A stretch of 34,838 bases of DNA. It comes from a virus. Taxonomy: Duplodnaviria > Heunggongvirae > Uroviricota > Caudoviricetes. The stretch lies in IMG/VR virus record IMGVR_UViG_3300027804_000053; one strand, given 5' to 3'. Below are positions 1 through 26,644 of the stretch, in pieces. The notes below the pieces were generated by a model, which worked only from the letters and a program-made list of their open reading frames with translations, had not been told where the DNA came from and searched no databases. The stretch's first letter is position 1. Each line of letters begins with the position of its first letter. The translations under genes and the position numbers were made by a program.

Positions 1-2
1 CA

Positions 3-3000
3 ACTGGAACAAGTGGAACTTCGGGTACTTCAGGTACAACTGGAACAAGTGGAACTTCGGGTACTTCAGGTACAACGGGAACATCAGGTACATCTGGCAC
101 ATCAGGCACAACAGGTACAAGTGGTACATCAGGAACATCAGGCACATCTGGCACAACAGGTACAAGTGGTACTTCAGGTACAAGTGGAACAACTGGAACA
201 AGTGGAACAACAGGTACCTCTGGCTCAAGTGGTACATCAGGTACGACAGGTACAAGTGGAACCTCCGGCACTAGTGGTACATCTGGTACGACGGGTACTA
301 GTGGAACGTCAGGAACATCCGGTACAACAGGTACTAGTGGTACTTCGGGAACATCTGGCACAACAGGTACTAGTGGAACATCAGGTACATCTGGCACAAC
401 AGGTACTAGCGGAACATCAGGTACATCAGGTTCATCAGGGACTAGCGGTACTGATGGAACTTCAGGAACAAGTGGAACATCAGGTACATCTGGAACCAGC
501 GGAACAACGGGAACATCCGGTTCAAGTGGTACTTCAGGTACAACTGGTACTTCAGGCACTTCAGGCACATCAGGAACAAGTGGCACTTCAGGTACAACTG
601 GTACTTCAGGTACGTCAGGAACCTCTGGAACAACGGGTACTAGTGGAACATCCGGGACAAGTGGTACTTCTGGTACGACGGGAACAAGTGGTACATCTGG
701 TACAACGGGAACAAGTGGTACTTCAGGAACAAGCGGAACTTCTGGAACAACGGGTACAAGTGGTACTTCAGGTACAACAGGTACAAGCGGAACTTCAGGT
801 ACAAGTGGAACAACAGGTACAAGTGGAACTTCAGGAACATCAGGTTCATCAGGTACAAGTGGAACTGATGGAACCTCGGGTACAAGTGGAACTTCAGGAA
901 CGTCAGGTTCTTCAGGAACAACTGGAACAAGTGGAACTTCGGGTACTTCAGGTACAACTGGAACAAGTGGAACTTCGGGTACTTCAGGTACAACGGGAAC
1001 AAGTGGAACTTCGGGTACTTCAGGTACAACGGGAACAAGTGGAACTTCGGGTACTTCAGGTACAACAGGAACAAGTGGTACATCAGGAACATCTGGTACA
1101 ACGGGTACCTCTGGCACAAGTGGAACTTCTGGTACAACTGGAACTAGCGGTACATCAGGTACTAGTGGAACATCGGGTACAACAGGTACAAGTGGAACTT
1201 CCGGTACTACAGGTACTAGCGGTACTTCTGGAACATCAGGTTCATCAGGAACTAGCGGTACAGATGGAACTTCCGGAACTTCAGGTACATCGGGTACTTC
1301 AGGTACAACTGGAACAAGTGGTACCAGCGGTACATCGGGTACAACTGGAACAAGTGGTACCAGCGGTACATCGGGTACAACAGGTACAAGTGGGACCAGC
1401 GGTACATCGGGTACAACAGGTACAAGTGGGACCAGCGGTACATCGGGTACAACAGGAACATCAGGTACAAGTGGAACTTCAGGCACTACAGGAACATCAG
1501 GTACCAGTGGTTCTTCAGGAACCTCGGGAACCTCAGGCTCTTCAGGGACAAGTGGAACTGACGGTACATCAGGTTCAAGTGGAACTTCGGGAACATCTGG
1601 TACTTCAGGTACAACCGGAACATCAGGTTCAAGTGGAACTTCAGGAACATCCGGAACGACTGGAACTAGCGGTACCTCAGGAACTTCAGGTACTACAGGT
1701 ACATCAGGTACAAGTGGAACTTCAGGAACTACTGGAACTTCAGGAACATCAGGCTCATCAGGAACAAGTGGAACTGACGGTACATCAGGTTCAAGTGGAA
1801 CTTCGGGAACATCTGGTACTTCAGGCACAACAGGAACAAGTGGTACATCAGGTACATCTGGCACAACTGGAACAAGTGGTACGTCAGGAACATCTGGTAC
1901 TTCTGGAACTACAGGAACTAGTGGAACATCAGGAACAAGTGGTTCATCGGGAACAAGTGGAACGGATGGTACATCGGGCACTTCAGGTACTTCAGGTACT
2001 TCAGGTACGTCAGGAACCTCTGGAACAACGGGCACTTCAGGAACCTCTGGAACAACGGGCACTTCAGGTACCTCAGGCACATCTGGAACCTCAGGAACAA
2101 CAGGTACTTCAGGTACATCTGGAACTTCAGGTACGACAGGAACAAGTGGTACGTCTGGTACAAGTGGTTCATCAGGAACAAGTGGTACTGATGGTACATC
2201 TGGAACTTCTGGTACATCGGGAACTTCTGGAACAACAGGTACAAGTGGTACTTCAGGTTCTTCAGGAACAAGTGGAACAACAGGAACAAGCGGTACTTCA
2301 GGTTCAAGTGGAACATCAGGTACTTCAGGAACAACTGGTACATCAGGTTCAAGTGGAACATCAGGTACATCTGGCACAACCGGAACTAGCGGTACTTCAG
2401 GTACATCGGGAACTTCTGGTACAACTGGTACAAGTGGTACTTCAGGAACTACGGGTACATCAGGTTCTTCAGGAACAAGTGGTACAGATGGTTCATCTGG
2501 AACCTCAGGGACAAGTGGTACATCAGGAACATCAGGTTCATCAGGTACGTCAGGTACAAGTGGAACGACTGGTACATCAGGTTCAAGTGGAACGTCTGGT
2601 ACAAGTGGAACATCAGGAACTTCAGGTTCAAGTGGAACGTCAGGTACAAGTGGAACGACTGGTACATCAGGTTCAAGTGGAACATCTGGTACAAGCGGAA
2701 CAACAGGTACTTCAGGAACATCAGGTACGAGCGGAACAACAGGTACTTCAGGAACATCAGGTTCAAGTGGAACATCAGGTACGTCAGGAACTAATGGTTC
2801 TTCAGGAACCTCAGGCACATCTGGTACAACAGGAACGTCAGGTTCAAGTGGAACGTCTGGAACAAGCGGAACAACAGGTACTTCTGGCTCATCAGGTACG
2901 TCAGGTACGAGTGGAACAACAGGTACTTCTGGGTCATCAGGTACGTCTGGCACTTCGGGTACAACAGGAACGTCAGGTTCATCTGGAACATCTGGTACAA

Positions 3001-3965
3001 GCGGAACTACAGGAACTTCAGGTTCATCCGGAACTTCTGGTACATCTGGAACTACAGGAACATCAGGTTCATCTGGAACATCTGGTACAAGCGGAACTAC
3101 AGGAACATCTGGTACATCAGGAACTACAGGAACCTCTGGCTCATCAGGTACGTCTGGTTCATCTGGTACAAGCGGAACTACAGGAACATCTGGTACATCT
3201 GGAACTAATGGTTCATCAGGTACTAGTGGAACTACAGGAACCTCTGGAACATCTGGGACTACGGGAACTTCTGGTTCTTCTGGAACATCTGGTACAAGCG
3301 GAACTACAGGAACCTCTGGTACATCCGGAACTAATGGTTCATCAGGTACTAGCGGAACATCAGGAACGACTGGTACAAGCGGAACGTCAGGAACAACAGG
3401 TACTTCGGGTACAACCGGTACTTCAGGTTCATCAGGAACATCTGGTTCATCAGGAACTACAGGAACCTCAGGTACTTCAGGTCTTGGAACGATTAACAAT
3501 AATGTAAACAACTACGTTCTAACAGCAACTGGAACAGCGGGAACTATCAATGGTGAAGCAAATTTACAATTCGACGGTACAACCTTATCAGTTACGGGCG
3601 ATGTTACGATTACAGGTTCACTAACAGCGGCGTCCAAGTCATTTGACATTCCTCACCCAACAAAAGAAGGATATAGATTAAGATACGGTGTGTTGGAAGG
3701 TCCTGAACACGGAGTTTACCACAGAGGTAAAGCTACAAGTGAAGTAATTGAATTACCTGACTATTGGAGTGAATTGGTAGACCTTGAAACAACAACAGTT
3801 CATCTAACACCTATCGGAAAGTCAAACGACCACTTCGTGGTGAAAGTTGAAGAGAACACAGTTGTGATTGGCTCTGAGACAGGTGAAATAAACGCTTACT
3901 TCATGGTTCAAGCTGAACGTAAAGATGTGGAAAAGGTCTTATTAGAGTACAAACCGAATAAATAA
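3..3965 (+). CDS. 5'-partial collagen-like (Gly-Thr/Ser-Ser/Thr)n fibre protein with globular C-terminal domain; putative tail/virion fibre
   Basis: Frame +3 reads act gga aca agt gga act tcg ggt... (T-G-T-S-G-T-S-G) from base 3 and runs without a stop into GLGTINNNVNNYVLTATG...KSFDIPHPTKEGYRLRYGVLEGPEHGVYHRG, ending at TAA 3963-3965. The track ORF 3690..3965 is only its C-terminus, because the first ATG/GTG in this frame is at 3690. The start lies upstream of the window. Confidence 0.88.
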   Translation, partial: TGTSGTSGTSGTTGTSGTSGTSGTTGTSGTSGTSGTTGTSGTSGTSGTSGTTGTSGTSGTSGTTGTSGTTGTSGSSGTSGTTGTSGTSGTSGTSGTTGTSGTSGTSGTTGTSGTSGTSGTTGTSGTSGTSGTTGTSGTSGTSGSSGTSGTDGTSGTSGTSGTSGTSGTTGTSGSSGTSGTTGTSGTSGTSGTSGTSGTTGTSGTSGTSGTTGTSGTSGTSGTSGTTGTSGTSGTTGTSGTSGTSGTSGTTGTSGTSGTTGTSGTSGTSGTTGTSGTSGTSGSSGTSGTDGTSGTSGTSGTSGSSGTTGTSGTSGTSGTTGTSGTSGTSGTTGTSGTSGTSGTTGTSGTSGTSGTTGTSGTSGTSGTTGTSGTSGTSGTTGTSGTSGTSGTSGTTGTSGTSGTTGTSGTSGTSGSSGTSGTDGTSGTSGTSGTSGTTGTSGTSGTSGTTGTSGTSGTSGTTGTSGTSGTSGTTGTSGTSGTSGTTGTSGTSGTSGTTGTSGTSGSSGTSGTSGSSGTSGTDGTSGSSGTSGTSGTSGTTGTSGSSGTSGTSGTTGTSGTSGTSGTTGTSGTSGTSGTTGTSGTSGSSGTSGTDGTSGSSGTSGTSGTSGTTGTSGTSGTSGTTGTSGTSGTSGTSGTTGTSGTSGTSGSSGTSGTDGTSGTSGTSGTSGTSGTSGTTGTSGTSGTTGTSGTSGTSGTSGTTGTSGTSGTSGTTGTSGTSGTSGSSGTSGTDGTSGTSGTSGTSGTTGTSGTSGSSGTSGTTGTSGTSGSSGTSGTSGTTGTSGSSGTSGTSGTTGTSGTSGTSGTSGTTGTSGTSGTTGTSGSSGTSGTDGSSGTSGTSGTSGTSGSSGTSGTSGTTGTSGSSGTSGTSGTSGTSGSSGTSGTSGTTGTSGSSGTSGTSGTTGTSGTSGTSGTTGTSGTSGSSGTSGTSGTNGSSGTSGTSGTTGTSGSSGTSGTSGTTGTSGSSGTSGTSGTTGTSGSSGTSGTSGTTGTSGSSGTSGTSGTTGTSGSSGTSGTSGTTGTSGSSGTSGTSGTTGTSGTSGTTGTSGSSGTSGSSGTSGTTGTSGTSGTNGSSGTSGTTGTSGTSGTTGTSGSSGTSGTSGTTGTSGTSGTNGSSGTSGTSGTTGTSGTSGTTGTSGTTGTSGSSGTSGSSGTTGTSGTSGLGTINNNVNNYVLTATGTAGTINGEANLQFDGTTLSVTGDVTITGSLTAASKSFDIPHPTKEGYRLRYGVLEGPEHGVYHRGKATSEVIELPDYWSELVDLETTTVHLTPIGKSNDHFVVKVEENTVVIGSETGEINAYFMVQAERKDVEKVLLEYKPNK
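6..3482 (+). repeat. 9-nt-period coding repeat (Gly-X-Y), about 386 triplets, with internal 36-nt tandem duplications
   Basis: Gly codons fall at 6+9k, and the phase is still kept at 3480 ((3480-6)/9=386). Near-exact 36-nt units occur at about 1-82, 919-1068 and 1307-1450. Confidence 0.92.
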
Positions 3966-3970
3966 AATTG

Positions 3971-4000
3971 AAAAGGGAAGTGAAAACTTCCCTTTTTTTT
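3971..4000. terminator. bidirectional intrinsic terminator between convergent genes
   Basis: AAAAGGGAAGT-GAAA-ACTTCCCTTTT(TTTT): 11-bp stem, GNRA loop, A-tract and T-tract flanks. It lies between stop 3965 (+) and stop 3999 (-). Confidence 0.85.
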
Positions 4001-4670
4001 ATCTATTATCTATGTAAATTATAATTTCAGTAAAAACATCTATGAACTCATCAGTCCAAAATTTTTCTTCTATGTTTAAACCATTCCAAGACCTTACTTT
4101 GAAATTTGGGAAAATCCTCAGGTAAGTGTCTCTGAAAATTTTAAATTTAGATTTTAATTCTGGTGTTCTTAGGTGCCATTCTCCTACAATTTTTCTAACA
4201 TTAGATTTTATCCAAAGTAAATTTTCAATATTGAAAATATCATATTCACCTCCCTCGCAATCAGTTTTTAAAAAATCGATTTTCGAAATATTGTAACTTG
4301 AAATTACAGATTTGAATGTGGTTGAGTATAGTTTATTATTATCTTGGTTTTCAAAAACGAATTCAAAATTGAATTCACCATCAACATTAGAGATACCTTT
4401 ATTAATTTGTGTAACAGGACCAAAGTTAGTATTCTTAACTAGTGTTATGAATTCAGCTAAAGATGGTTCAAACGCGAAGACATGAGAGGGATTTTTATTC
4501 AAAATAGAGAAAGTGAAAGGACCCAAACTTGCTCCTACATCGAAAACAACATCTCCTGGTTCAACCTCAAAGTATTTTTCATACAGATTATCTACAAAAA
4601 TTTCTTTGTAAACTGTTTGTTTAAAACCCTCATAACACTCGGGTTCCCAAATAAAATTTTCTAAATTCAT
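3999..4670 (-). CDS. FkbM-family SAM-dependent methyltransferase
   Basis: VVFDVGASLGPFT (SAM motif I), VFAFEPS, IDFLKTDCEGGEY. Confidence 0.85.
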   Translation of the reverse strand: MNLENFIWEPECYEGFKQTVYKEIFVDNLYEKYFEVEPGDVVFDVGASLGPFTFSILNKNPSHVFAFEPSLAEFITLVKNTNFGPVTQINKGISNVDGEFNFEFVFENQDNNKLYSTTFKSVISSYNISKIDFLKTDCEGGEYDIFNIENLLWIKSNVRKIVGEWHLRTPELKSKFKIFRDTYLRIFPNFKVRSWNGLNIEEKFWTDEFIDVFTEIIIYIDNR

Positions 4671-7600
4671 AATAAATGTTGTATTTGTTTGATTAACATG
4701 TCGGATGTGATTGATTTATGACATTCGAAATGTCTTTCAGTTCCTTTGTGTACAGGACACCAATCCCAGTCCCCTTTATCAAAAGTAAATTCGGGTTTAT
4801 TCCAACAACCATTACAAACTGATAAGTTTATTATTCTTGTACAGTTGGATTGAAATTCGTGGTCAGGAGTTGTAAAGTTACTAATCATTACAACATGTTT
4901 ACCCATTCCCCAAGCGAGCCAACTTAATCCACTCGACAATCCTATGAAAAATTCACTATGGTGTATAACATTCATGGTATTCTCCATTGAGGTGTCGGTA
5001 ATTCTAATTTGGTTTTCAAATGGGTTATTTTCTTTGGAAACGTTTACTACTTTATAACCGAGTGATGTTAGATAATTTATGGTTTCTTGCCAACCTTCTC
5101 TTGTCCAAAACTTACATCCTGCGGTAGAGTTTGTTGCTATTGTCACATACTTTTCCGCATATGGTCTTTCTTTAATCTCATAATGTATTTTTGGTTGAAT
5201 TTCTTTGTATTCCAAACCAAGAATGTCGGTTGCTGTCTGTTGTAAGGGGATAAGGTTTGGTTTTGTGGGTTGCATATCTACATTATAGAACCAACCAAGT
5301 TTATACATTCCGTGAATTCCATTGACAGTAGTCCCTGGATGTACAAACTTTAAATCGGGGTAAACAGATTCAAAAAGATGATTCCAAAAAGTTGAAACCA
5401 CTACTTCACAGTTATGAACTTTTCTGAATTCTTCTGCGTAAGGAACCCATGAAATTGTATCACCCAAGGATTTCGAGTCAAAAGCAATGTAAACACGTTT
5501 ACCTTCGTAATTTAAAGTGTTTTCATAAACTAAATTGTCATTTTCCCAAACCTTCGTGGTCCATCTTGTGAAATATTGTCTATTAAGTTTAACCCAACTG
5601 TTAATCGCAAGATGATTTTCATAATGTAAAACCCCTTTTTCATCAAAAAACTGAATTTTGAATTTGTTTTCACTTTTTCCTTTTATTTCTATGAAAGGTT
5701 GATTAATGAAATATTGGGTTACAGACAATTTTGTTTTAAAGTATTGTTCTCTTACAGGAAGGTCCAAAACCTTTTTATAAAAATCAGAATATTTGGAAGC
5801 AAAAATTTCTTCTTGTCCTTGTGGAGTTTTGTATTTAACATCTTCTTTGATAAGAGACAACAACTTTTCTTTTGTTGTTTCGATATTCTCATCAATTGGT
5901 TCGATGTATGGAGTAAACATATCCATATATTGTGGAAGGTTTCTACATAAAACCTTTAACCCATAGGATATTGCTTCTCTTAGAACGAGGGGGTTACATT
6001 CCCAAGTCGAGTTAAACATGAAAACATCCGCGGCTTTCATAAAAGTATCCACATCCGCACGTTCACCCCAAACTTTCACGTTCATCGGGAGATTTTTCAT
6101 GATTGGTCCCCAATAGTCTTTGAAATTGGACGCTTGGTTTCCAATAAAATGAAATACTATTTCGGGGTTTGTTTTTCTCAGAAGTCTGGCAATTTCAACA
6201 CCTTCCCCCTGATTTTTTCCTTTTGTCCAAAGTCCAACATTTATCACATGGATTTTGTCTTTTCCGAACCCTAACTCTCTTCTAGCGGCAATACGTTCTT
6301 CCTCTGTAAAGATTTTCTTTTCAATTGGGAATTCAATATTTTCACTATATGATGGAACATTTTTGAATGTAACATCTTTGTGATAAGGGGTACAGAATGC
6401 AAAGGCCTCAGGATAAAATATCTTGTGTTCCTCGTGGTTGAACCACACGTTATGGCAAGTTTCAACCATTTTCCATGTCCTATCATTACTATAAAGTTGA
6501 CTCATTATTTCAGGAGGCATTTGATTAAAAGAATCAAATCCTTCTATCATTTCTTGTACGTGGACAATATCTATTTCATTGCTTTTAATAATACGGATAA
6601 GTTCAGATTTATCGGGACCGAGAGTCCAGAAATTACCTCTATCAACAATGTCGATAATTTGATTTCTTTGAACAACATATGCGTCTCCATAACTCTGATA
6701 CTCTACGACGTAGATTTTAATTTCAGGGTAATACTGCTTTAATAATTGAATTTTTTTCAATAGGAACCCGGGCATTCCACCTGTGGATAAATGCGGGGCA
6801 ACAAATAGTAATCTCATTTTTTTGTTTGAATTAAATAAAATACATGATGGGTCATTCCAAGGTGCGGATTCTAATAGTTTATCCGCAATACTTGTATCCC
6901 CTAAATCGAAAACGAGTTCATTAATTAATTGTTCTGCGTTTTCGTAAGTTATTGTTTTTGGCGTTTCATAATGTCTATTAACAGAATAATAATAGTCCAT
7001 GTATTTGAAATCGCCGCCATTGATGTTATTTGAAAAATATATTCTTGAGTTTGGAATTCCATAAGCATCTGCGGCTATAAGACCGTGTAGACTTGATGAG
7101 ATTACAAATTCAACCTCTTTTAATTGGTCAACAAATTCATATAAACCCGCCGTAATGTTAATTATTTTAGCTCCCATCTCCTTTAACTTTTTAAGGCATT
7201 TTAAAGTCTCTGGGTGTCTAAAATCTATGTAGTGTGGAATTACTCCATACTTATATTTTTTCTCAATGTCGGGGTTGTATATTCTTGGAAACAAAAGTCC
7301 AGGGTCTCCATATACTTCGGGACATTCCCTGTTTACTTTCAAAAGTTCATTTCGTGTTAATGGTCCTCTGACAGCATAATATTTTTTTGGTGGGAGACCC
7401 ACTTCGTTTTCTTTGATACATCCCGAACCCCAAACATAATCTGTTGGTAGGGAATACATAAGGATACTTCCTGCGGCCAATAGTTTTCCTTCCAAGAAAG
7501 GAACTCTCGCGTCTGGGTCAAAATGAAACACATCTGAAGAATATATTTTTTGACCTGAAAAATGTTGAATAACTTTATGAGAAATTATATCACCCCAATT

Positions 7601-9820
7601 TTTCGGAGGTTTAATATCATATTCAAAATAACCCTTAATCTTCTCAATCATTTTTTCCATTTTATCTATTCTTTTTTCACCATGGAAAAACAATATTTTT
7701 TCTTTGGATTCAGGTGCTCGAAGCCAATTTCCTAAATGATTTCTTACATCTTCTCCTAAAAATTCTACTTCTGTATACATTTTATCTACAATCTCTGGAC
7801 CACCGTTCACGTAGATATATGGAAGACCATCAAATATTTTATGTTTGTAAGTCAGAACATTCATAATTGTTTCTTCATTGTACGCGGCGTACCAAGAAGT
7901 ATTTTTTAATACTTTTGGATGAGTACAGTACCAATACCACTCCTCAAGGAAATCTAAGGATTTTTGACCAGCAACAAAATACCCTGTTTGTCTATATTTT
8001 TGTCTAACATATTGGTCAATGTTGAATAATTCACAAGCGGGGGCCTCTAATGTATTGCTAAGGTCATCCATGGACTCGGCACCACCTCTACCATTGAGAA
8101 ACATCCAATCATAAATTCCTTCAACAAAGAAAGGATATGTGGTTTCTTCATTATACATGTCAAAAATGGAATCAATGTATGGAGTTGCGATAGAATCACT
8201 ATCGATATAAACAGCGGTTTGAACAAAATTTTCAAGAGCGTGTTTAACAGCGTTAATTCGTTGAATTAATATATTATAAATGGTGGAATTACTTCTATCG
8301 ATATAAAAATTTTCACCATCAGAGTTATACATCGGTTCAGAGGATTTAGGTAAATTTACATCCCACCGAATTGTCGTTGTATTTTCAACATTTACCTTTT
8401 TGTCTGAGTTCAACATGTAAACAAAAATTGGATACTTACTAAACTCTCTAACAGAACGAGCCGAAGTTTGAACAATATCGAAATATTTTTCATTTGCTAA
8501 ATAGACATAACCTCTTTGATGAACTAAACTTTTCCAAAATACATCTTTCATTATGGAATCATAATTTTGAATTTTGTTTTCATTATCAGAATAACTTAAC
8601 GTCTGAGTAAAAATCATCGGGATTGTAATTCCAAAATCAAAAACTTTGTGACCTGCTCCGTGACGGAATCTAAATTGAGAGTTTGTTGAATCATTCAAAA
8701 ACATATCAATGGTACATTTGTAAAGGTAATGGCTCGGGTCAAGATAGTTCTTCATTTGGTCTACATAATGTTCTATAAAATTTCTTTTATAAAAAAGAGA
8801 TTGGGAACATAACATTTCTTTAAAAGAACCATCCGTTTCTGAGTTGGGGTATATTTTGCTTCTCGGGAGTAGTTTAATTCCAAGCGCTAAAACATCGTAT
8901 CTTTCAACCGATTCATGCCAATTATCAAATATCTTATCTAATTGTTTTTCGGTTACTCCGTCCATCAATTTCAAATCGTCTTCAAAAATCAAAATATTTT
9001 GCATATCTGAATCAAGAAAATCTTGGAATATGTTCATATATGCTTGTGTACAACCTAATTTCTTGTATTCTTCATTCTCCATTACAACACCATCCACAAA
9101 TTCGAAACCACTGAAATTTAATTCTGTTAATGTTTTTTCAATATTAATCCTTCTATCATTTCTTTCGGGTAAATTGATTACACAACCTCTGTCTGCAATT
9201 TTTTTACCTTTGTAAAAAAGACCTGATACTTTGTGTAAAACAATATCCTCTTCCAATCTTTCAATTGTGTAATTGGGTAAATTCTTTATTAGTTTTTCAA
9301 GCTCCTCTTTGTTTGAGGACTCATTATATTCGAACATAATCTTGTTTGCGTAAAGACTTGGGTTTTTTTCACAATATTCAAAATAATTTTTTAGTATCAC
9401 GTGGTCATAACCTTCAGTGTCAATTTTAACGTAACCGACACTCTTTACTTCATTTTCGTTAATGATTGTATTCCAGTCGATTGTTGGCACTTTTTTAATT
9501 TTTACGATACTATCATAAAAATCAGGACCCAACTTGTTTCTAGTAAATTCGTGAGGTTTATTAACTGAGTTACATCCTTTTACCCAAATAGGTAAGTTAT
9601 TCTTAATGATGTCTTCAGGTTCAATTAAATAAATTTCTATTTCTCCGTTTTCATTAGAGACTGCGGCATTAATTTTTTTTACATTTTTTTTATTGGGTAA
9701 TCTGTTCAAATAATATTCTATTGGTTCAATACTTAATCCAACAGTATTGTCAGTTGATTGTTCTATTAGGGTGTGAAAATCGGATGTTCCAATTTCAATG
9801 AAATTAAAATGTTTTTTCAT
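4667..9820 (-). CDS. 1717-aa multidomain glycan-modifying enzyme: FkbM MTase + GT25-like + GT8/GT77-like GT-A + polysaccharide pyruvyltransferase + GT4 + TibC/Aah-like O-heptosyltransferase
   Basis: FIEIGTSD...KIDTEGYD (FkbM); VINLPERNDRR...LGC...ILIFEDD (GT25); YVYLANEKY...AVYIDSD (GT-A DxD); NWGD...AVRGPLTR...GDPGLL...SSSLHGLIAADAYGIP (pyruvyltransferase); HLSTGG...GKNQ...AADVFMFNSTWECNPLVLREA (GT4); SKSLGDTISW...CNGCWN...WCP...FEC (BAHT). Confidence 0.85.
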   Translation of the reverse strand: MKKHFNFIEIGTSDFHTLIEQSTDNTVGLSIEPIEYYLNRLPNKKNVKKINAAVSNENGEIEIYLIEPEDIIKNNLPIWVKGCNSVNKPHEFTRNKLGPDFYDSIVKIKKVPTIDWNTIINENEVKSVGYVKIDTEGYDHVILKNYFEYCEKNPSLYANKIMFEYNESSNKEELEKLIKNLPNYTIERLEEDIVLHKVSGLFYKGKKIADRGCVINLPERNDRRINIEKTLTELNFSGFEFVDGVVMENEEYKKLGCTQAYMNIFQDFLDSDMQNILIFEDDLKLMDGVTEKQLDKIFDNWHESVERYDVLALGIKLLPRSKIYPNSETDGSFKEMLCSQSLFYKRNFIEHYVDQMKNYLDPSHYLYKCTIDMFLNDSTNSQFRFRHGAGHKVFDFGITIPMIFTQTLSYSDNENKIQNYDSIMKDVFWKSLVHQRGYVYLANEKYFDIVQTSARSVREFSKYPIFVYMLNSDKKVNVENTTTIRWDVNLPKSSEPMYNSDGENFYIDRSNSTIYNILIQRINAVKHALENFVQTAVYIDSDSIATPYIDSIFDMYNEETTYPFFVEGIYDWMFLNGRGGAESMDDLSNTLEAPACELFNIDQYVRQKYRQTGYFVAGQKSLDFLEEWYWYCTHPKVLKNTSWYAAYNEETIMNVLTYKHKIFDGLPYIYVNGGPEIVDKMYTEVEFLGEDVRNHLGNWLRAPESKEKILFFHGEKRIDKMEKMIEKIKGYFEYDIKPPKNWGDIISHKVIQHFSGQKIYSSDVFHFDPDARVPFLEGKLLAAGSILMYSLPTDYVWGSGCIKENEVGLPPKKYYAVRGPLTRNELLKVNRECPEVYGDPGLLFPRIYNPDIEKKYKYGVIPHYIDFRHPETLKCLKKLKEMGAKIINITAGLYEFVDQLKEVEFVISSSLHGLIAADAYGIPNSRIYFSNNINGGDFKYMDYYYSVNRHYETPKTITYENAEQLINELVFDLGDTSIADKLLESAPWNDPSCILFNSNKKMRLLFVAPHLSTGGMPGFLLKKIQLLKQYYPEIKIYVVEYQSYGDAYVVQRNQIIDIVDRGNFWTLGPDKSELIRIIKSNEIDIVHVQEMIEGFDSFNQMPPEIMSQLYSNDRTWKMVETCHNVWFNHEEHKIFYPEAFAFCTPYHKDVTFKNVPSYSENIEFPIEKKIFTEEERIAARRELGFGKDKIHVINVGLWTKGKNQGEGVEIARLLRKTNPEIVFHFIGNQASNFKDYWGPIMKNLPMNVKVWGERADVDTFMKAADVFMFNSTWECNPLVLREAISYGLKVLCRNLPQYMDMFTPYIEPIDENIETTKEKLLSLIKEDVKYKTPQGQEEIFASKYSDFYKKVLDLPVREQYFKTKLSVTQYFINQPFIEIKGKSENKFKIQFFDEKGVLHYENHLAINSWVKLNRQYFTRWTTKVWENDNLVYENTLNYEGKRVYIAFDSKSLGDTISWVPYAEEFRKVHNCEVVVSTFWNHLFESVYPDLKFVHPGTTVNGIHGMYKLGWFYNVDMQPTKPNLIPLQQTATDILGLEYKEIQPKIHYEIKERPYAEKYVTIATNSTAGCKFWTREGWQETINYLTSLGYKVVNVSKENNPFENQIRITDTSMENTMNVIHHSEFFIGLSSGLSWLAWGMGKHVVMISNFTTPDHEFQSNCTRIINLSVCNGCWNKPEFTFDKGDWDWCPVHKGTERHFECHKSITSDMLIKQIQHLL

Positions 9821-10761
9821 TTTTCTATTGTATTCATTATTTTATTGTAAACCTGTAAAACATTAGGGTGACAAAGGAATGTTTGATAATTTTCTAAACA
9901 ACCAACAAGAGAAGGAATCCCTCTTACTGACTCCCAATATTTTACACCATATTTCATGTCAGAAGCACAAGCTATTTTGCATTCACCTGAAATATAGTCA
10001 TATTTGTAGTTTTGTAATCCATTCCTGAAGGGTGCTCTGAGTTTGTAATCTACCGAACTACCTAATTGAAAGATATGGGCATCAGTTGTTCCAGCTAAAT
10101 GAAGCATTCCCGAATCCATCGTTACAACACCAACTGATTTTTCCATTAACCACCAAGTCTGAGATAAATTAGCATTGTTGAGTAAATTTAAACCTAGTTC
10201 AATAGGGAAATCAAAAACCGGTTTTTGCACATTTGAATTTCCAATTTCACTTGAATCCTTTCCAACCGAGACTACACCAATTCCCGAATCGTTCAACATA
10301 TTGGTTAAAAGTGTCCAATTTTGTTTTGACCAAGTTCTCGATGCCCAAGTTTGTACTGGATGAATTACCACAAACCTTTCGGGTAAATTTTCGATAGTAA
10401 TAAATTTATCAGGAAAAAAATCCATGTCCATATCTTCGGGAAGGAGTTGAAATCCTAAACCTGAGGCATGGAATTGTCTAATGTCAAATTGATTGTGTCT
10501 TAAACTTATTCCAAACTTATTTTCAATGTTCGGATAAAAACTTGTGAGAACTTCGTAATTTTCAGAAATAATATCTCTATTACTATTTTCAGTAAAATAC
10601 AGTTCACTAACGTATGGACTATTTTTAAAAACGTCAGGATGAACCGTTAATACCGCAATCTTTTTCCCATAAGAATTATATAATTTTCTAAGAGATGGAG
10701 TTGCACAAATAGTGTCACCTAAACCTCTTGCAAGGGATAAATCTAAGCATACCTCTTTCAT
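9817..10761 (-). CDS. GT9 (heptosyltransferase-like) glycosyltransferase
   Basis: GLGDTICATPSLRKL, VVIHP...RTWS, LSQTWWLMEKSVGVVTMDSGMLHLAG; Cys cluster at the C-terminus. Confidence 0.8.
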   Translation of the reverse strand: MKEVCLDLSLARGLGDTICATPSLRKLYNSYGKKIAVLTVHPDVFKNSPYVSELYFTENSNRDIISENYEVLTSFYPNIENKFGISLRHNQFDIRQFHASGLGFQLLPEDMDMDFFPDKFITIENLPERFVVIHPVQTWASRTWSKQNWTLLTNMLNDSGIGVVSVGKDSSEIGNSNVQKPVFDFPIELGLNLLNNANLSQTWWLMEKSVGVVTMDSGMLHLAGTTDAHIFQLGSSVDYKLRAPFRNGLQNYKYDYISGECKIACASDMKYGVKYWESVRGIPSLVGCLENYQTFLCHPNVLQVYNKIMNTIEK

Positions 10762-11135: not shown

Positions 11136-14100
11136 ATGGCAGGATTTTGGGTATTTTCAGGTGATAGTTGTACAGATGGTCTGAACTACGAGTTATGGGA
11201 CAATTTTCCCACTGCTGGTACAGTCACAGTAGGTGCTGTATATAGTGGAATATCTGGAGATTTTTACACTGTTACGTATAGTGGAAATACTGGTACTAAC
11301 ACTGGTATTTTTGTTGATACCTCTGTAGATTATGGGACATGTCCTGTGACTCCTACTCCAACAGAAACTACAACACCTACTGTAACACCTACTACTTGGG
11401 GTGGTTGTATTGTATGGGACGACGATGTATATGATACCATAAACTCACCTTGTGGAATTGGAAACACTGATACGAGAAGAAGAATACAACTTCAATTGTT
11501 AGATAGTCCGGGAGGAAATCAAATTCCTGCACCTACCAACATAACTGTTGTATTTTCCGCCACTTCAACAAGCACTTGTCCTGACTACAACGGAACCGTA
11601 TATTATAATACAGGAATCCTTGCTGGAAACAGCACTAATCTCTTTGTATATGTTCAAAACGGATATGACACATGCCCAACAGATTCGATTTGTACGAGTT
11701 TCAATGTAAGTACTCTTAGTTTAGGTATTTCAGGAATTACACCTTCTCAGTTCCAAGTCTGTGCTGATGTGACCCCGACTCCAACTTCAAGCGAAACACC
11801 AACTGAAACTCCCACCCAAACAGAAACCCCATCTCAAACTCCTACACCTTCAACAACTGCAACAATTGGATTAACACCTACGGCGACCGAAACCCAAACA
11901 CCCACACAAACTGAAACACCGAGTCAAACTCCTTCCGTAACTCCAACTGAGACACCTACACAAACTGCAACGGAAACCCCTACACAAACTGCAACTCAAA
12001 CACCCACATTCACCGAGACGCCTACTCAGACTTCTAATGACACTCCGACTCAAACACCTACACAAACTGAAACACCAACGCAAACCTCTACCGACACTCC
12101 AACTCAAACGCCTACACAAACTGAAACACCTACACAAACTCCAACTGAAACTCCAACTCAGACTGCAACTCCATCAACTACGGCAACAATAGGTTCCACG
12201 CCTACACAAACTCCAACGGAAACCCCTACGGAAACACCAACTCAAACTGCAAGTGAGACCCCAACGGAAACCCCAACTCAGACTGCGAGCGAGACACCTA
12301 CTGAAACTCCAACGCAAACAGAAACACCAACTCAAACTCCAACACCTGGTAATTCACCAACTCCAACACAAACAGAAACTCCAACAGAGACTCCTACTGA
12401 AACCCCAACTCAGACTGCGAGTGAGACACCTACTGAAACTCCAACGCAAACCGAGACGCCTACACAAACTCCGACACCTAATAGTACCCTAACACCTACA
12501 GCTACAGAAACTCCAACAGAGACTCCAACAGCAACAGAGACAGCCACACAAACTCCTTCCGAAACACCTACTGAAACCCCAACACAGACTGCAAGTGAGA
12601 CACCAACACAAACTCCAACTAATACAGAAACTCCAACTCAGACTGCAAGTGAGACGCCAACCCAAACCCAAACACCAACCCAAACGTTGACTCCTGAGTT
12701 AGTTATTCAATTTAGAGAGTGTGATTCGAACTTTGTATTCCGTTTTGCGGGTAGTCCGATGCCTTATCTCCCTGTTGATTCAGTTTATTTGATTGAGGGT
12801 AGTTTGGATTTCTCAGGTTGCGCCACTGTCGTATCATACACTTCAGAAGGTCCCCTTTATAATTCTGCTGGAGTTACATTTACTGAAATTGATTACTGTG
12901 GTAATACGACTTACTGTCCAAGAACTGATAGAAAGGCTGCACAACTTGCAAGATGTAGGGATGGTCTGTTGAGTTATTTCATGGTGGATGTAGACACGGC
13001 ATTTCAATACGGTGTTTATTTCTATCAAGGAGATTGTTGGAAATTTGTGAGATTTGATGGACCTGGTGGTCCGTACCTTGGTTCACCAAGTTATTTTGAT
13101 TGTGAAGATACGGCATGTATACCAACACCAACACCAACCGTAACGCCAAGAGAAACGCCAACTCACACTCCAACACCTTCACCAACACCAAGTGCATGTA
13201 CATATTCTACTTTCTGTTTTAGAACGACTTTACCTGAGTTGGAAGACTATAGTGGAAATTATACAGAATACGGATATATCTACAACACTCAATTAACATA
13301 TTCAGGTGATGGAATTAACACCGGTGTAATTTATTATTTTACTTCTTCAACTGAAAGTTATTGGTGTTTGAGTGATTCACTTGGAGGCTCCTGTTTGTTA
13401 AGAGGCGCATCTCCTTGTAATTCCAACTGTCCTGATGTAAGTGGAAACTTCTTCACTTCAGGTGTTTGTCCTACACCTACACCTTCACCATCTGCCTGCA
13501 CAATTGACTTTGTTGCATATTTCGATTGTGATTGGGAACCTATACCAACACCTAGCCCGTCAGTACCGTGTGATGACGTTGATTTTGATTTTAACAGTTT
13601 TGGATTGACTCCAACACCTACATCAACAAATCCATGTACAGGAAAAGCCGTGGAATTCCAATTATATGAGTCCACACCTACACCAACACCAACTAACACT
13701 ACAACACCAACTAGCTCAAGAGTTTATGAACCTCTGGGTGGAAAAGTCTCATTCGAAATTTTTGATTCACCAATCTCTTGTCCTGAGGTGGCCATTCTAA
13801 AAGAATGTACTCAAGGAACAGATTTCTATTTCTGTGCACTAAATCAATTGGTATATAACGGTCTTGTTGTGGAACCTGGTACAATAATGAATGCAATCAT
13901 CAATGGACAGTATGTTTGCGTTGAATATATTGGTAATCGTTCTAACACTTCATCAAATTCTGTAATAACCTCTATTATTAACCTTTATTCAGATTGTCAG
14001 AGCTGTGTTGTCTTCCCAACACCAACAGTAACTCTTACTCCTACTCAAACTCAAACACCTTCTAATACTGCAACACCCACCCAAACTGCGACAGTAACAC

Positions 14101-14957
14101 CGACCACAACAACTACAAGAACACCAGGTTTGACCCCTGACCCAACTACATCAATAACACCGACAAATACGGCTTCAAATACTCCAACTCCGTCTTATAC
14201 TCAGACACCAACGCCAACAAATTTGCAAAAGTATTATGTGTTTACCCTTTGTCCTAATCAAGAAAGTACAATAAGGTTTAATAGATTATTCCAAACTTCA
14301 TCATTAACGGTTCCAATTCTTCCAACCAAAGTATTCACCGATGACAATGGTTTGTGTTGGACATATGAAGGATTTACAACAGCGATTGTTCCAAATCCAA
14401 ATTACGTTGACTTGATTTGGCAAGACAATTATTTCGGTACCGCGGGAGAATTACAATCAGACACTTGTGACGAGTGCCTTACAACATCTACAAAGATAAA
14501 TCTTCAACTTCAGGTTTTACCGAGCTTCGAGGGATATATTCCAAGTGGGGCGACAACAACATTCGATAGTCCAAATTTTGGAGTCTCTTTTTATGATGGA
14601 ATTGACCCAAATAATGGAACATTGTTCTACCCACCATCTGATGTGTTGAACGATGGTGTAATTGTATCCAATTTGATTACCTTAATTGGTTCAGACCCAT
14701 ATTCGATATCCAAGCTAGCTGTCGGAGTAATACACGGAAGATTTTTCTCGAAAGCAAATGTTGTTGTCAAAGCATACATAAATGGAGTTTTAGCAAGCCA
14801 AGTAACACAACTTATTGAGGGAAATAGCGAAAACTTTGGAATTCAAATTGGAGGTTTGTTCGAACAAATAAACTGTGTATCAAACCCGTGTTTGAGAGAA
14901 TTAAATAGAGGAGACATATTACTTATAACGGTAGAACAAAATTCAGAAATAGGATAA
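11136..14957 (+). CDS. 1273-aa Thr/Pro-rich, Cys-rich putative virion structural protein
   Basis: Long (TPTQTETP)-type mucin-like tracts (about 11770-12700, plus shorter ones) separate Cys-rich beta-type domains; no enzyme motif recognised. Confidence 0.75.
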   Translation: MAGFWVFSGDSCTDGLNYELWDNFPTAGTVTVGAVYSGISGDFYTVTYSGNTGTNTGIFVDTSVDYGTCPVTPTPTETTTPTVTPTTWGGCIVWDDDVYDTINSPCGIGNTDTRRRIQLQLLDSPGGNQIPAPTNITVVFSATSTSTCPDYNGTVYYNTGILAGNSTNLFVYVQNGYDTCPTDSICTSFNVSTLSLGISGITPSQFQVCADVTPTPTSSETPTETPTQTETPSQTPTPSTTATIGLTPTATETQTPTQTETPSQTPSVTPTETPTQTATETPTQTATQTPTFTETPTQTSNDTPTQTPTQTETPTQTSTDTPTQTPTQTETPTQTPTETPTQTATPSTTATIGSTPTQTPTETPTETPTQTASETPTETPTQTASETPTETPTQTETPTQTPTPGNSPTPTQTETPTETPTETPTQTASETPTETPTQTETPTQTPTPNSTLTPTATETPTETPTATETATQTPSETPTETPTQTASETPTQTPTNTETPTQTASETPTQTQTPTQTLTPELVIQFRECDSNFVFRFAGSPMPYLPVDSVYLIEGSLDFSGCATVVSYTSEGPLYNSAGVTFTEIDYCGNTTYCPRTDRKAAQLARCRDGLLSYFMVDVDTAFQYGVYFYQGDCWKFVRFDGPGGPYLGSPSYFDCEDTACIPTPTPTVTPRETPTHTPTPSPTPSACTYSTFCFRTTLPELEDYSGNYTEYGYIYNTQLTYSGDGINTGVIYYFTSSTESYWCLSDSLGGSCLLRGASPCNSNCPDVSGNFFTSGVCPTPTPSPSACTIDFVAYFDCDWEPIPTPSPSVPCDDVDFDFNSFGLTPTPTSTNPCTGKAVEFQLYESTPTPTPTNTTTPTSSRVYEPLGGKVSFEIFDSPISCPEVAILKECTQGTDFYFCALNQLVYNGLVVEPGTIMNAIINGQYVCVEYIGNRSNTSSNSVITSIINLYSDCQSCVVFPTPTVTLTPTQTQTPSNTATPTQTATVTPTTTTTRTPGLTPDPTTSITPTNTASNTPTPSYTQTPTPTNLQKYYVFTLCPNQESTIRFNRLFQTSSLTVPILPTKVFTDDNGLCWTYEGFTTAIVPNPNYVDLIWQDNYFGTAGELQSDTCDECLTTSTKINLQLQVLPSFEGYIPSGATTTFDSPNFGVSFYDGIDPNNGTLFYPPSDVLNDGVIVSNLITLIGSDPYSISKLAVGVIHGRFFSKANVVVKAYINGVLASQVTQLIEGNSENFGIQIGGLFEQINCVSNPCLRELNRGDILLITVEQNSEIG

Positions 14958-15173
14958 ATGGCACTTACAATAACCATATCATCAATAACTGGCACGTCAC
15001 CTTACAATGTATATCTCTGTGAAGGGGATGGTACTGGATGTTTTTATATAAATCAGATTTCATCCACACCTTATACATTTGACATACCCGCACCTTATGA
15101 TACATCAACTTCATATATGGTAAAAATAGTAGATGCTGTAGGTTGTATTATAACTTCCACCCAATCATTATGA
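14958..15173 (+). CDS. 71-aa small beta-domain protein, paralogous to the N-terminus of the next gene
   Basis: ITISSITGTSPYNVYLC...PYTFDIPAPYD...KIVDAVGC; abuts the previous stop and overlaps the next gene by ATGA. Confidence 0.75.
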   Translation: MALTITISSITGTSPYNVYLCEGDGTGCFYINQISSTPYTFDIPAPYDTSTSYMVKIVDAVGCIITSTQSL

Positions 15174-16471: not shown

Positions 16472-16504
16472 AAAAAATGAAACTATAATTATAGAATATA
16501 AAAA

Positions 16505-26415: not shown

Positions 26416-26616
26416 ATGCCACAAAGTAAAAAAAGAAATGGTGCCAAGGCCCACAGAAAAAAAGTCAGTTCAAGAAACGAGACTATTAAAAAACAACAAG
26501 GTGCAATCCAAAAATTGTTTGAAGAATCTATTAAACTACAAGTAGAGGAGTTAAAGAAAAAAAATGCAGAATCCTCAGGAAATACGGTCTCAGACGAAGG
26601 AGTGGAATCTGTTTAA
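26416..26616 (+). CDS. small basic hypothetical protein
   Basis: 66-aa ORF with K/R-rich N-terminus. Confidence 0.65.
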   Translation: MPQSKKRNGAKAHRKKVSSRNETIKKQQGAIQKLFEESIKLQVEELKKKNAESSGNTVSDEGVESV

Positions 26617-26644
26617 TCCGAAACCAGAATATAATTATAAAAAG

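Follow-up and report, generated by a model that had tools for sequence, protein, structure and literature searches.

The DNA analysed here, 34,838 nucleotides from an uncultured phage that we call the window, encodes a true relative of the glycosyltransferase TibC, a homologue of the BAHT family, as the C-terminal module of a 1717-residue multi-enzyme protein (P0001; 4667..9820, minus strand). The operon to which this gene belongs stands tail-to-tail with a giant gene for a Gly-Thr-Ser collagen-like fibre, and this arrangement recurs across phage lineages and beside related bacterial enzymes. We consider it probable that the BAHT domain, which represents a sister clade of the known enzymes, adds the first sugar to this fibre of the phage's own, and that the other modules extend and decorate the glycan. 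What suggests the fibre as acceptor is, throughout, gene neighbourhood.

The identity of the domain (residues 1385-1717; 4670..5668, minus strand) is evident from profile, sequence and fold. TIGR04414 scores 285 bits on full-length P0001 and 291 bits (E = 1e-86) on the isolated domain, above the curated equivalog cut-off of 200 bits, and TibC itself (4RAP) matches the domain with E = 2e-51 in phmmer. An AlphaFold model (pLDDT 90.4) superposes on 4RAP with a TM-score of 0.85 and an rmsd of 2.4 Å over about 371 columns (Foldseek); WaaC and other GT9 or LPS heptosyltransferases reach TM 0.4-0.5, and the next-best fold stays below 0.5. Profile search and superposition were among the checks that the initial annotation had proposed for its TibC/Aah reading, and both bear it out. 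As in TibC of ETEC and Aah (AAH) of DAEC (TIGR04414; 4RAP, 4RB4; PMC4358343), to which the domain is homologous along the whole enzyme, the modelled protomer consists of an N-terminal beta-barrel, an atypical GT-B catalytic domain and, as an insertion, a 1Fe-0S-type four-cysteine finger with predicted metal binding. The first barrel strand lies at about residue 1366 (nt 5725), and the limits originally given for the domain (4667-5720) fit a domain that includes the barrel.

Catalytic and metal-binding positions are conserved as well. The SKSLGDTISW motif, from which a TibC-like catalytic region had been supposed, is present in the P0001 reading frame, and its Asp-1454 (codon 5459..5461, minus strand), within SLGD, does align with Asp-110, the catalytic base of TibC; 4RB4 carries the D110A mutant in the same column, and the position is invariant in 142 homologues (62 viral, 80 bacterial). 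In TibC, Thr-226 and Lys-230 bind the beta-phosphate and Trp-305 binds the heptose O4 (PMC4358343); the equivalents in P0001 are Thr-1566, Lys-1570 and Trp-1634, and these three positions, together with Asp-1454 and the four finger cysteines, are invariant in 62 distinct viral domains. The cysteine motif, C1669-x2-C1672-x15-C1688-x11-C1700 (4721..4816, minus strand), was found exactly as reported, with a spacing (x2/x15/x11) identical to that of TibC Cys-339/342/358/370, the iron ligands of the finger (PMC4358343), and save for two gapped rows its cysteines are invariant in the 62 viral and 80 bacterial homologues. We regard the domain, predicted to be catalytically intact, as belonging to a distinct sister clade of the autotransporter heptosyltransferases that is carried mainly by phages. 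A chance occurrence of the cysteine motif can be excluded, as it sits within a profile match of E = 1e-86, and so can a decayed or vestigial domain, as the clade shows no variation at any catalytic or metal position. Nor is the serine at the site of TibC Pro-300 a special feature, as serine, also found in Aah, is the family norm and TibC the exception.

Three marks distinguish the clade from classical BAHTs, from which it is parted by a single long and fully supported tree branch (length 0.96, SH-aLRT 100). One concerns Arg-286 of TibC, which touches adenine N1 and is the basis of its ADP specificity (PMC4358343): the site is Thr-1615 in P0001 and threonine in 60 of the 62 viral domains, while arginine is kept in 67 of 80 bacterial homologues. 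Another is the beta-hairpin thumb (Phe-265/Val-266), which links TibC dimers into a dodecamer ring (PMC4358343). Counted on the alignment, this segment has 27 residues in TibC and 63 of 64 classical BAHTs but 17 in P0001 and 57 of 62 viral domains, and the model of the P0001 domain has no hairpin there. Because the dodecamer-building thumb is 10 residues shorter, the processive ring mechanism of TibC probably does not apply to the phage enzyme. The third mark is fusion to other transferases: the phage domain is a module of a 1717-residue protein, whereas TibC and Aah are stand-alone bacterial enzymes of about 400 residues.

P0001 comprises six modules. From N- to C-terminus, all on the minus strand, these are an FkbM-type methyltransferase (residues ~1-200; 9221..9820), a GT25-like module (~205-440; 8501..9208; 28.5 bits, cut-off 24), a conserved GT-A-fold module (~440-720; 7661..8503), a polysaccharide pyruvyl-transferase-like module (~760-1000; 6821..7543), a GT4-type GT-B glycosyltransferase (Pfam Glycos_transf_1; ~1008-1340; 5801..6799) and the BAHT domain. 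The GT-A module was assigned by fold because Pfam and NCBIfam searches of residues 430-780 gave no match; it has an invariant D-x-D (Asp-540, Asp-542), and the best PDB matches of its model (pLDDT 91.7) are GT6 enzymes (TM 0.45-0.50). The GT4 module is fused to BAHT in 40 of 41 viral homologues and the GT25-like module is found in 4 of 41, while the pyruvyl-transferase-like module occurs in P0001 only among the 41 proteins compared.

Two further genes on the same strand adjoin that of P0001, encoding a GT9-family glycosyltransferase with weak likeness to LPS heptosyltransferases I and II (314 aa; 9817..10761; PF01075, 41.5 bits) and a second FkbM-family methyltransferase (223 aa; 3999..4670; TIGR01444, 51 bits, cut-off 37.7). 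The GT9 stop overlaps the start of the 1717-codon gene, and the TGA of the latter overlaps the ATG of the FkbM gene; by these ATGA overlaps the three genes are predicted to be translationally coupled. No membrane-spanning segment was found in the three operon proteins (maximum Kyte-Doolittle 19-residue mean 1.23). The exact P0001 protein occurs on three metagenome contigs of 14-33 kb, which extend little past the window; when 15 kb of the window were compared with phage records by megablast, there was no match, and atlas look-ups returned only viral clusters without names. The window is phage DNA, as seen from its primase, SbcCD, RuvC, sigma factor and tail-fibre PHROGs, and Bacteroidota as the host are a plausible guess. 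The initial annotation had overlooked that the BAHT domain is the last module of so large a protein, and that a giant Gly-Thr-Ser gene lies tail-to-tail with the operon; its TibC/Aah reading is supported but was incomplete, leaving the acceptor unnamed and missing the fusion context.

The fibre gene in the window (3..3965, plus strand) is the 3' part of a longer gene whose 5' end lies outside it; on L307 the same frame runs to at least 1953 residues. It encodes an unbroken run of 387 Gly-X-Y triplets reaching to nt 3489, with Thr at 89% of X and Ser at 78% of Y positions and proline absent from the repeats, and the part in the window contains 789 Ser and Thr residues and 6 Pro. In bacterial collagens the triple helix is stabilised by X/Y positions rich in proline or in charged residues, a feature that these repeats do not show. 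The gene nevertheless matches Pfam Collagen (PF01391, 33 bits on the last tract) and tail-fibre PHROGs, and its repeats are followed by a non-repeat C-terminal domain of about 160 residues (3490-3962, plus strand; phrog_17490, E = 4e-40), for which a sequence search of the PDB gave no match. A bidirectional terminator-like hairpin (3970..3997; 12-bp stem, T-runs on both strands) separates the fibre gene from the convergent transferase operon.

This pairing is not peculiar to the window. A convergent Gly-Thr-Ser gene (X mostly Thr, Y mostly Ser) lies downstream in 41 of the 52 distinct viral loci that have at least 3 kb of downstream sequence, as compared to a collagen-like ORF in 6 of 55 on the upstream side, which served as control (Fisher p = 3e-13), and the paired gene is convergent in every case (41/41). 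One cultured phage, Microcystis phage Mel-JY01, also carries both the module and a Gly-Thr-Ser gene. After collapsing relatives, the pairing is found in 9/9 clusters at 50% identity, 16/20 at 60% and 32/39 at 70%. Five loci that lack a neighbouring fibre gene were followed up, and all five have a Gly-Thr-Ser tract elsewhere in the record: four contain a large frame (906-5,216 aa), three of these just past the flank examined and the fourth at the far end of the contig, and the fifth, a fragment that is 6% complete, has only a weak tract of 8 triplets at the edge of its contig.

The pairing is also independent of the fusion partners of the BAHT domain. In bacterial contigs, including Methylobacter chromosomes, BAHTs of this clade are stand-alone proteins of 373-440 aa, and small collagen-like ORFs of the Gly-Thr/Ser-Ser type lie 35-1,106 bp away; a collagen-like neighbour is present for 13 of 16 bacterial members of the clade versus 0 of 64 classical BAHTs. 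As a positive control for neighbours being substrates, 4 of 8 sampled classical loci adjoin AIDA-repeat or autotransporter proteins, whereas the ORFs of the window include no autotransporter or AIDA-repeat gene and the neighbour of P0001 is the proline-free collagen-like fibre. Conversely, 16 of 47 viral records selected solely by Gly-Thr-Ser repeat DNA have a BAHT above cut-off, against a baseline of 4 in 50,697 phage records overall. Gly-Thr-Ser fibres do not require a BAHT, however, as three of the six near-complete phages sampled that carry such a fibre have none.

ADP-heptose is the default candidate for the donor of the P0001 domain. As had been noted at the outset, heptose-pathway genes are absent from the window, profile searches of its ORFs having found none; likewise gmhA, rfaE domains I and II and the generic NTP_transferase family gave no match in five related phage records, four of which are perhaps near-copies of one phage. 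Supply of ADP-heptose by the host is possible, because RfaE-II scores above cut-off in all five bacterial genomes or bins, Bacteroidota bins among them, that carry or are co-binned with a BAHT of the clade, and GmhA matches are strong in four of the same five. Its use is uncertain, on the other hand, because threonine takes the place of the adenine-contacting Arg-286 in 60 of 62 viral domains. The early suggestion that the donor sugar may differ thus gains from the substitution in the enzyme and loses from the pathway in the associated bacteria. As the adenine-reading Arg is systematically Thr, one may propose that the clade uses a donor other than ADP-heptose and that the glycans replace hydroxyproline in holding the proline-free Gly-Thr-Ser triple helix, a combination that we think rather unlikely. 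In Riftia cuticle collagen, galactosyl-threonine holds the triple helix in place of hydroxyproline. Were the same true here, a large proportion of aquatic phages would rely on phage-directed glycosylation for fibre folding and, through it, for infectivity.

According to the reading that we favour, glycosylation of the fibre by the BAHT domain and its partners, the soluble 1717-residue protein would act in the host cytoplasm during infection. The BAHT module would put the first sugar on Ser/Thr hydroxyls of the proline-free (Gly-Thr-Ser)n fibre from a host-made nucleotide sugar, by default ADP-heptose, with Asp-1454 as general base in an inverting reaction like that of TibC. Elongation of the glycan would then fall to the GT4, GT-A and GT25 modules of P0001 and to the GT9 enzyme encoded beside it, and decoration of the glycan to both FkbM methyltransferases and the pyruvyl-transferase module, so that the resulting virion would bear a densely glycosylated fibre, with possible effects on fibre stability or host recognition. 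GT4 enzymes are also able to start protein O-glycosylation, for example of serine-rich repeat adhesins, and the GT4 module may therefore add the first sugar instead. As counterpoints to the scheme as a whole, tail-fibre regions are hypervariable islands that collect unrelated genes, and the collagen triple helix is structurally unlike the beta-helical substrate of TibC.

Glycosyltransferases in phage tail-fibre regions are usually interpreted in the literature as acting on the host (PMC7029224; PMC10202952), and the operon might accordingly remodel the host envelope (LPS core or O-chain, capsule, or a surface protein), for example blocking superinfection, with the fibre not being a target. The GT9, GT25, GT4 and pyruvyl-transferase families are indeed typical of LPS and polysaccharide synthesis, but the sole module with a characterised close homologue corresponds to a protein O-glycosyltransferase rather than to a lipid- or glycan-directed enzyme. 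Moreover, the operon proteins lack a detectable membrane segment, the ORFs of the window yielded no flippase, polymerase, ligase or polyprenyl-phosphate transferase, and envelope remodelling leaves unexplained the Gly-Thr-Ser pairing in 9/9 deep clusters and beside stand-alone bacterial BAHTs. We consider it quite unlikely.

Other virion proteins could be modified instead of, or besides, the fibre, such as the capsid, the tail tube or the large SprB-repeat and phrog_15511-type proteins encoded at 11136-20991, divergently from the operon. Several large structural-looking ORFs do lie directly upstream of it, and beta-helical phage fibres would be closer than collagen to the natural substrate of TibC. 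Extensive glycosylation of virion proteins is described for mycobacteriophages (Freeman et al. 2023, Cell Host Microbe, as cited in PMC12582341). Yet it is not these upstream ORFs that are conserved beside the operon; the partner that recurs across loci is the Gly-Thr-Ser gene, the only one that the bacterial loci retain, and a different virion target is in our view very unlikely. Still more doubtful is a mere hitch-hiking of both genes as cargo of one variable fibre island, the true acceptor being encoded elsewhere. Fibre regions are known metaviromic islands (PMC10202952; PMC7029224) and the converse association is incomplete (16/47), but the pairing at 35-1,106 bp exists outside phage fibre islands in bacterial contigs, including Methylobacter chromosomes, the orientation is uniform (41/41 convergent), and the neighbours of the classical clade are its proven substrates.

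To our knowledge, iron-finger BAHTs are known to O-heptosylate proteins solely in the context of virulence, their targets being autotransporter adhesins of Proteobacteria, and glycosylation of phage particles has been directly demonstrated in mycobacteriophages only. There, capsid and tail-tube subunits are reportedly modified in their C-terminal parts, by enzymes other than BAHTs, whereas the presumed target here is a collagen-like fibre and the lead enzyme an iron-finger BAHT homologue. Common to both would be phage glycosyltransferases that modify the phage's own structural proteins in the cytoplasm (Freeman et al. 2023, as cited in PMC12582341). With TibC and Aah, P0001 likely shares its chemistry, in which Ser/Thr residues of a long repetitive protein, the product of an adjacent gene, are hyper-O-glycosylated. 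The repeats of BclA, from the Bacillus anthracis exosporium, are largely Gly-Pro-Thr and its glycan begins with GalNAc and is made by unrelated enzymes; in giant viruses, the collagen glycan is linked to hydroxylysine. BclA is likewise a collagen-like repeat protein, forming trimeric surface filaments, and short oligosaccharides, decorated by methylation, are densely O-linked to its collagen-like region (PMC10050317), but it is non-viral and involves no BAHT. Giant viruses with glycosylated collagen-like fibrils (reviewed in PMC9614988) encode collagen-like proteins and their own glycosylation machinery together, as the phage does here, but they are eukaryotic viruses with different enzymes, whereas the phage acceptors would be Ser/Thr.

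If fibre glycosylation is the true function, a whole sister branch of the BAHTs, common in environmental phages, would be devoted to Gly/Thr/Ser collagen-like acceptors, and many uncultured phages would bear mucin-like, sugar-coated fibres, with a bearing on host recognition, particle stability, adhesion and antigenicity. The annotation of 'LPS-type' glycosyltransferases in phage fibre regions would change, and P0001 would represent a compact, soluble multi-enzyme tool for defined O-glycans on repetitive proteins. Within the range of lengths searched, at least 2,511 protein clusters belong to the clade, and one pattern scan returned 97 viral contigs.

Opposite the fibre repeats there is an antisense Pro-rich frame (2..3511, minus strand), which can be ruled out as a real gene, as only the Gly-Thr-Ser frame continues into a conserved C-terminal domain and stops at the terminator. 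Public gene calls read the fibre on the wrong strand, which may be the reason why the pairing has gone unnoticed.

The BAHT (bacterial autotransporter heptosyltransferase) domain forms residues 1385-1717 of P0001, a multi-module protein of 1717 residues (4667..9820, minus strand), and lies at the 3' end of its ORF. The initial annotation had proposed a TibC/Aah-like domain from the peptide SKSLGDTISW, which is present, and from four cysteines (residues 1669, 1672, 1688 and 1700), which fall at nt 4721-4816 exactly as it had given them. Their spacing, C-x2-C-x15-C-x11-C, is identical to that of the TibC iron ligands Cys-339, 342, 358 and 370 (PMC4358343). The observation and the family assignment are confirmed, as the profile search and the structural comparison that it had named both came out positive. 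TIGR04414, the NCBIfam equivalog model for Aah/TibC (curated cut-off 200 bits), scores 285 bits with the whole of P0001 and 291 bits with residues 1340-1717. The predicted domain model, built from 42 homologues (pLDDT 90.4, pTM 0.85), matches TibC in Foldseek at TM 0.85 and 2.4 Å rmsd over ~371 columns, the next-ranked folds (WaaC, WaaF and another GT9) reaching just TM 0.4-0.5, and a phmmer search recovers both TibC structures, 4RAP and 4RB4, with E = 2e-51. Judged by homology, the domain is a member of the BAHT family.

Its catalytic core and metal-site residues are intact. With TibC numbering transferred via a HMMER alignment and residue roles taken from PMC4358343, the catalytic base Asp-110 corresponds to Asp-1454, the beta-phosphate contacts Thr-226 and Lys-230 to Thr-1566 and Lys-1570, and the heptose O4 contact Trp-305 to Trp-1634, while Phe-368, from the hydrophobic cluster where dimers meet through the thumb, is retained. 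Pro-300, which gives TibC its selectivity for the D,D-heptose isomer, is replaced by Ser as in Aah, and Ser is the family norm at this site (60 of the 62 viral homologues, 69 of the 80 bacterial ones). Three features of the TibC/Aah equivalog are changed or absent, however: Arg-286, which contacts adenine N1 and is the proposed basis of ADP specificity, is Thr-1615; the beta-hairpin thumb, which links TibC dimers into a dodecamer, is a segment of 27 residues in TibC but of 17 in P0001, whose predicted domain model has no hairpin at this position; and the window encodes no autotransporter partner. We have therefore filed the P0001 domain as a distinct sister clade.

The maximum-likelihood tree falls into two sets divided by a single branch of length 0.96 (SH-aLRT 100), and the clade signatures follow this split. 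One set, the classical clade, consists of 64 Arg-type loci without a collagen-like neighbour, while the other unites all 62 viral rows with the 13 bacterial rows that have a collagen-like neighbour and three more whose contigs are too short for a judgement. At the Arg-286 position, 60 of the 62 viral members have Thr but all 64 classical ones Arg, the thumb segment has 17 residues in 57/62 versus 27 in 63/64, and ORFs longer than 700 aa are found in 56/62 versus 0/64. As a control, four of eight sampled classical loci adjoin genes for AIDA-repeat and/or autotransporter beta-domain proteins, the class to which the proven substrates belong.

The presumed acceptor in the window is a collagen-like fibre, the 3' part of whose gene (3..3965, plus strand) converges on the P0001 operon across a 12-bp bidirectional terminator hairpin (3970-3997). 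It encodes 387 Gly-X-Y triplets without a break, where X is Thr in 89% and Y is Ser in 78% and proline is absent, followed by a domain of ~160 residues similar to functionally uncharacterised phage families (E = 4e-40). On L307, a contig with an identical P0001, the fibre frame (15856-21717, minus strand) comprises at least 1953 residues, is still open at the locus end, and has its Gly-Thr-Ser tracts split by a globular non-repeat insert of ~170 residues. Public gene calls for three contigs with identical P0001 interpret the repeats as antisense-encoded, Pro-rich proteins of 1,200-1,300 aa (2..3511 of the window, minus strand; 16310-20215 on L307; 16322-19942 on the contig L308) and assign the fibre C-terminal domain to a separate 91-aa gene, so that the collagen-like fibre is largely invisible in protein databases. 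The GC content is 46-49% over positions 1..4000, which hold the repeat gene, and 31-36% across most of the remainder, rising to as much as 42% across the large ORFs located at 12-18 kb; for the repeat gene this reflects the Gly/Thr/Ser codon make-up rather than a foreign origin.

The pairing of BAHT domain and collagen-like gene recurs in other viruses. A pattern scan of IMG/VR yielded 97 contigs with a BAHT domain (48-66% identity), of which 80 were kept, representing 65 distinct loci. In nearly all, the domain terminates an ORF of 700-1,600 aa; among 41 sampled proteins it is fused to GT4 in 40, a methyltransferase is frequent, and GT25 and FkbM occur in four each. For 52 distinct loci, 3 kb or more of downstream sequence is available; a collagen-like ORF lies on that side in 41 of them, always convergent and with mostly Thr at X and mostly Ser at Y, whereas the upstream control side has one in just 6 of 55 (Fisher p = 3e-13). 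When relatives are collapsed, such a locus is present in 9/9 clusters at 50% identity, 16/20 at 60% and 32/39 at 70%. Five of the 11 exceptions were traced into full records, and each of these contains a Gly-Thr-Ser tract free of proline at some other place. Four have a large frame (906-5,216 aa), situated just past the flank examined in three cases and at the far contig end in the other; the fifth, a record 6% complete, has no more than a weak tract of eight triplets at the edge of its contig. In the cultured Microcystis phage Mel-JY01 (PP395634.1, 1-8430), the BAHT-bearing 1226-aa CDS is labelled just "methyltransferase FkbM", and a 203-triplet Gly-Thr-Ser frame ~4 kb upstream appears in the annotation as short hypothetical proteins, of which two are on the opposite strand.

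In the converse scan, IMG/VR was searched for eight consecutive Gly-Thr-(Ser/Thr-type) codon triplets irrespective of BAHT, and of 47 of the resulting records searched with TIGR04414, 16 contain a match above cut-off (3 of the 6 rated at least 90% complete). The domain is present in just 4 of 50,697 GenBank phage records, and the enrichment is very large. BAHT is not an obligatory partner, as Gly-Thr-Ser fibres clearly exist without it. Three near-complete records (G015, G037 and G061; loci L187, L215 and L259) have no BAHT at all, and fibres of this type may be glycosylated by other enzymes or be unglycosylated.

Among species-representative genomes, 397 relatives were identified, and 13 of the best 80, which were analysed, have a Gly-Thr/Ser-Ser collagen-like neighbour: 10 of the 13 without the Arg-286 equivalent and three Arg-type loci at ~38% identity, compared with none of the 64 remaining Arg-type loci. 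On gammaproteobacterial or related chromosomes and MAG contigs, a stand-alone BAHT of 373-440 aa and a small collagen-like ORF are spaced 35-1,106 bp apart. Such pairs, which occur in free-living bacteria (L089 and L090 on Methylobacter chromosomes; L088 and L092-L097) with Gly-Thr/Ser-Ser ORFs of 105-534 aa, possibly represent a system for a glycosylated collagen-like surface protein. Because bacteria have these stand-alone pairs, we argue that BAHT itself, rather than another module, would be the collagen-directed enzyme.

P0001 begins with an FkbM methyltransferase module (residues ~1-200) and a GT25 module (~205-440). Residues ~440-720, which have no sequence-profile assignment, adopt a GT-A fold in the model predicted from a 36-sequence alignment (pLDDT 91.7), with an invariant D-x-D and GT6 enzymes as best structural matches at a modest TM of 0.45-0.50. 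A polysaccharide pyruvyl-transferase-like module (~760-1000; 6821..7543) separates it from the GT4 module (~1008-1340). A GT9 gene (314 aa, 9817..10761) overlaps the P0001 start and an FkbM gene (223 aa, 3999..4670) its stop, as ATGA; no membrane-like segment was found in any of the three proteins. This translationally coupled operon thus supplies, in soluble form, up to five glycosyltransferase folds together with two methyltransferases and one pyruvyl-transferase. As the pyruvyl-transferase module occurs in P0001 alone among 41 BAHT-bearing phage proteins compared, the sequences suggest a pyruvylated glycan specific to its lineage.

Glycosyltransferases of phage fibre regions have been read from genomes as modifiers of host O-chains or of DNA (PMC7029224, PMC10202952), and our literature search found no work tying BAHT enzymes to phages or collagen-like proteins. 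We infer instead that P0001 as a whole O-glycosylates the fibre. The BAHT module would attach the initial sugar to Ser/Thr residues of fibre chains that are nascent or not yet assembled, and the remaining modules would lengthen and cap a short methylated glycan, pyruvylated in this phage. Precedents for the general idea are virion glycosylation in mycobacteriophages, as cited in PMC12582341, and BclA, whose collagen-like region is densely glycosylated (PMC10050317). Given its shortened thumb and its tethering to other modules, the enzyme probably does not work by the ring-based, processive mechanism of TibC.

The initial annotation had noted that the window has no heptose pathway, which holds, and had reasoned from the heptose-poor LPS of many Bacteroidota that the donor may differ or be made elsewhere in the phage genome, an argument weakened by RfaE domain II. 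This domain scores above cut-off in all five bacterial genomes or bins carrying, or co-binned with, the collagen-linked BAHT type, among them Chitinophagaceae and Bacteroides-labelled bins, and four have strong GmhA matches. Five related phage records, two of them complete genomes (Mel-JY01 and one of 321 kb that has terminal repeats), contain no gmhA, rfaE I or II, or generic sugar-phosphate nucleotidyltransferase, so in these phages the donor would be host-made. We consider it about an even chance that this donor is ADP-heptose, since the systematic Arg-to-Thr exchange at the adenine contact leaves room for another nucleotide sugar.

The window is phage DNA, with tail-fibre PHROGs, a RuvC-like resolvase, primase, exonuclease, SbcCD, DNA methyltransferase, sigma factor and amidase, and a GC content of ~33% outside the repeats. 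Four large ORFs (11136..14957, 15143..16471, 16505..18703 and 18742..20991), divergent from the transferase operon, probably encode further virion or fibre proteins; a phrog_15511-type domain is common to three, and SprB repeats (PF13573), which typify the gliding adhesins of Bacteroidota, are present in one. The SprB repeat and the binning of close relatives with Chitinophagaceae are hints to the host, which may belong to the Bacteroidota. The SbcC-like protein (26564..28975) has only distant matches in the phage collection searched (at most 28% identity), the longest (~24%) in Mel-JY01 and uncultured phages of 484-735 kb; four of eight matching records also carry BAHT, a co-occurrence that may point to a distant relationship between these large phages.
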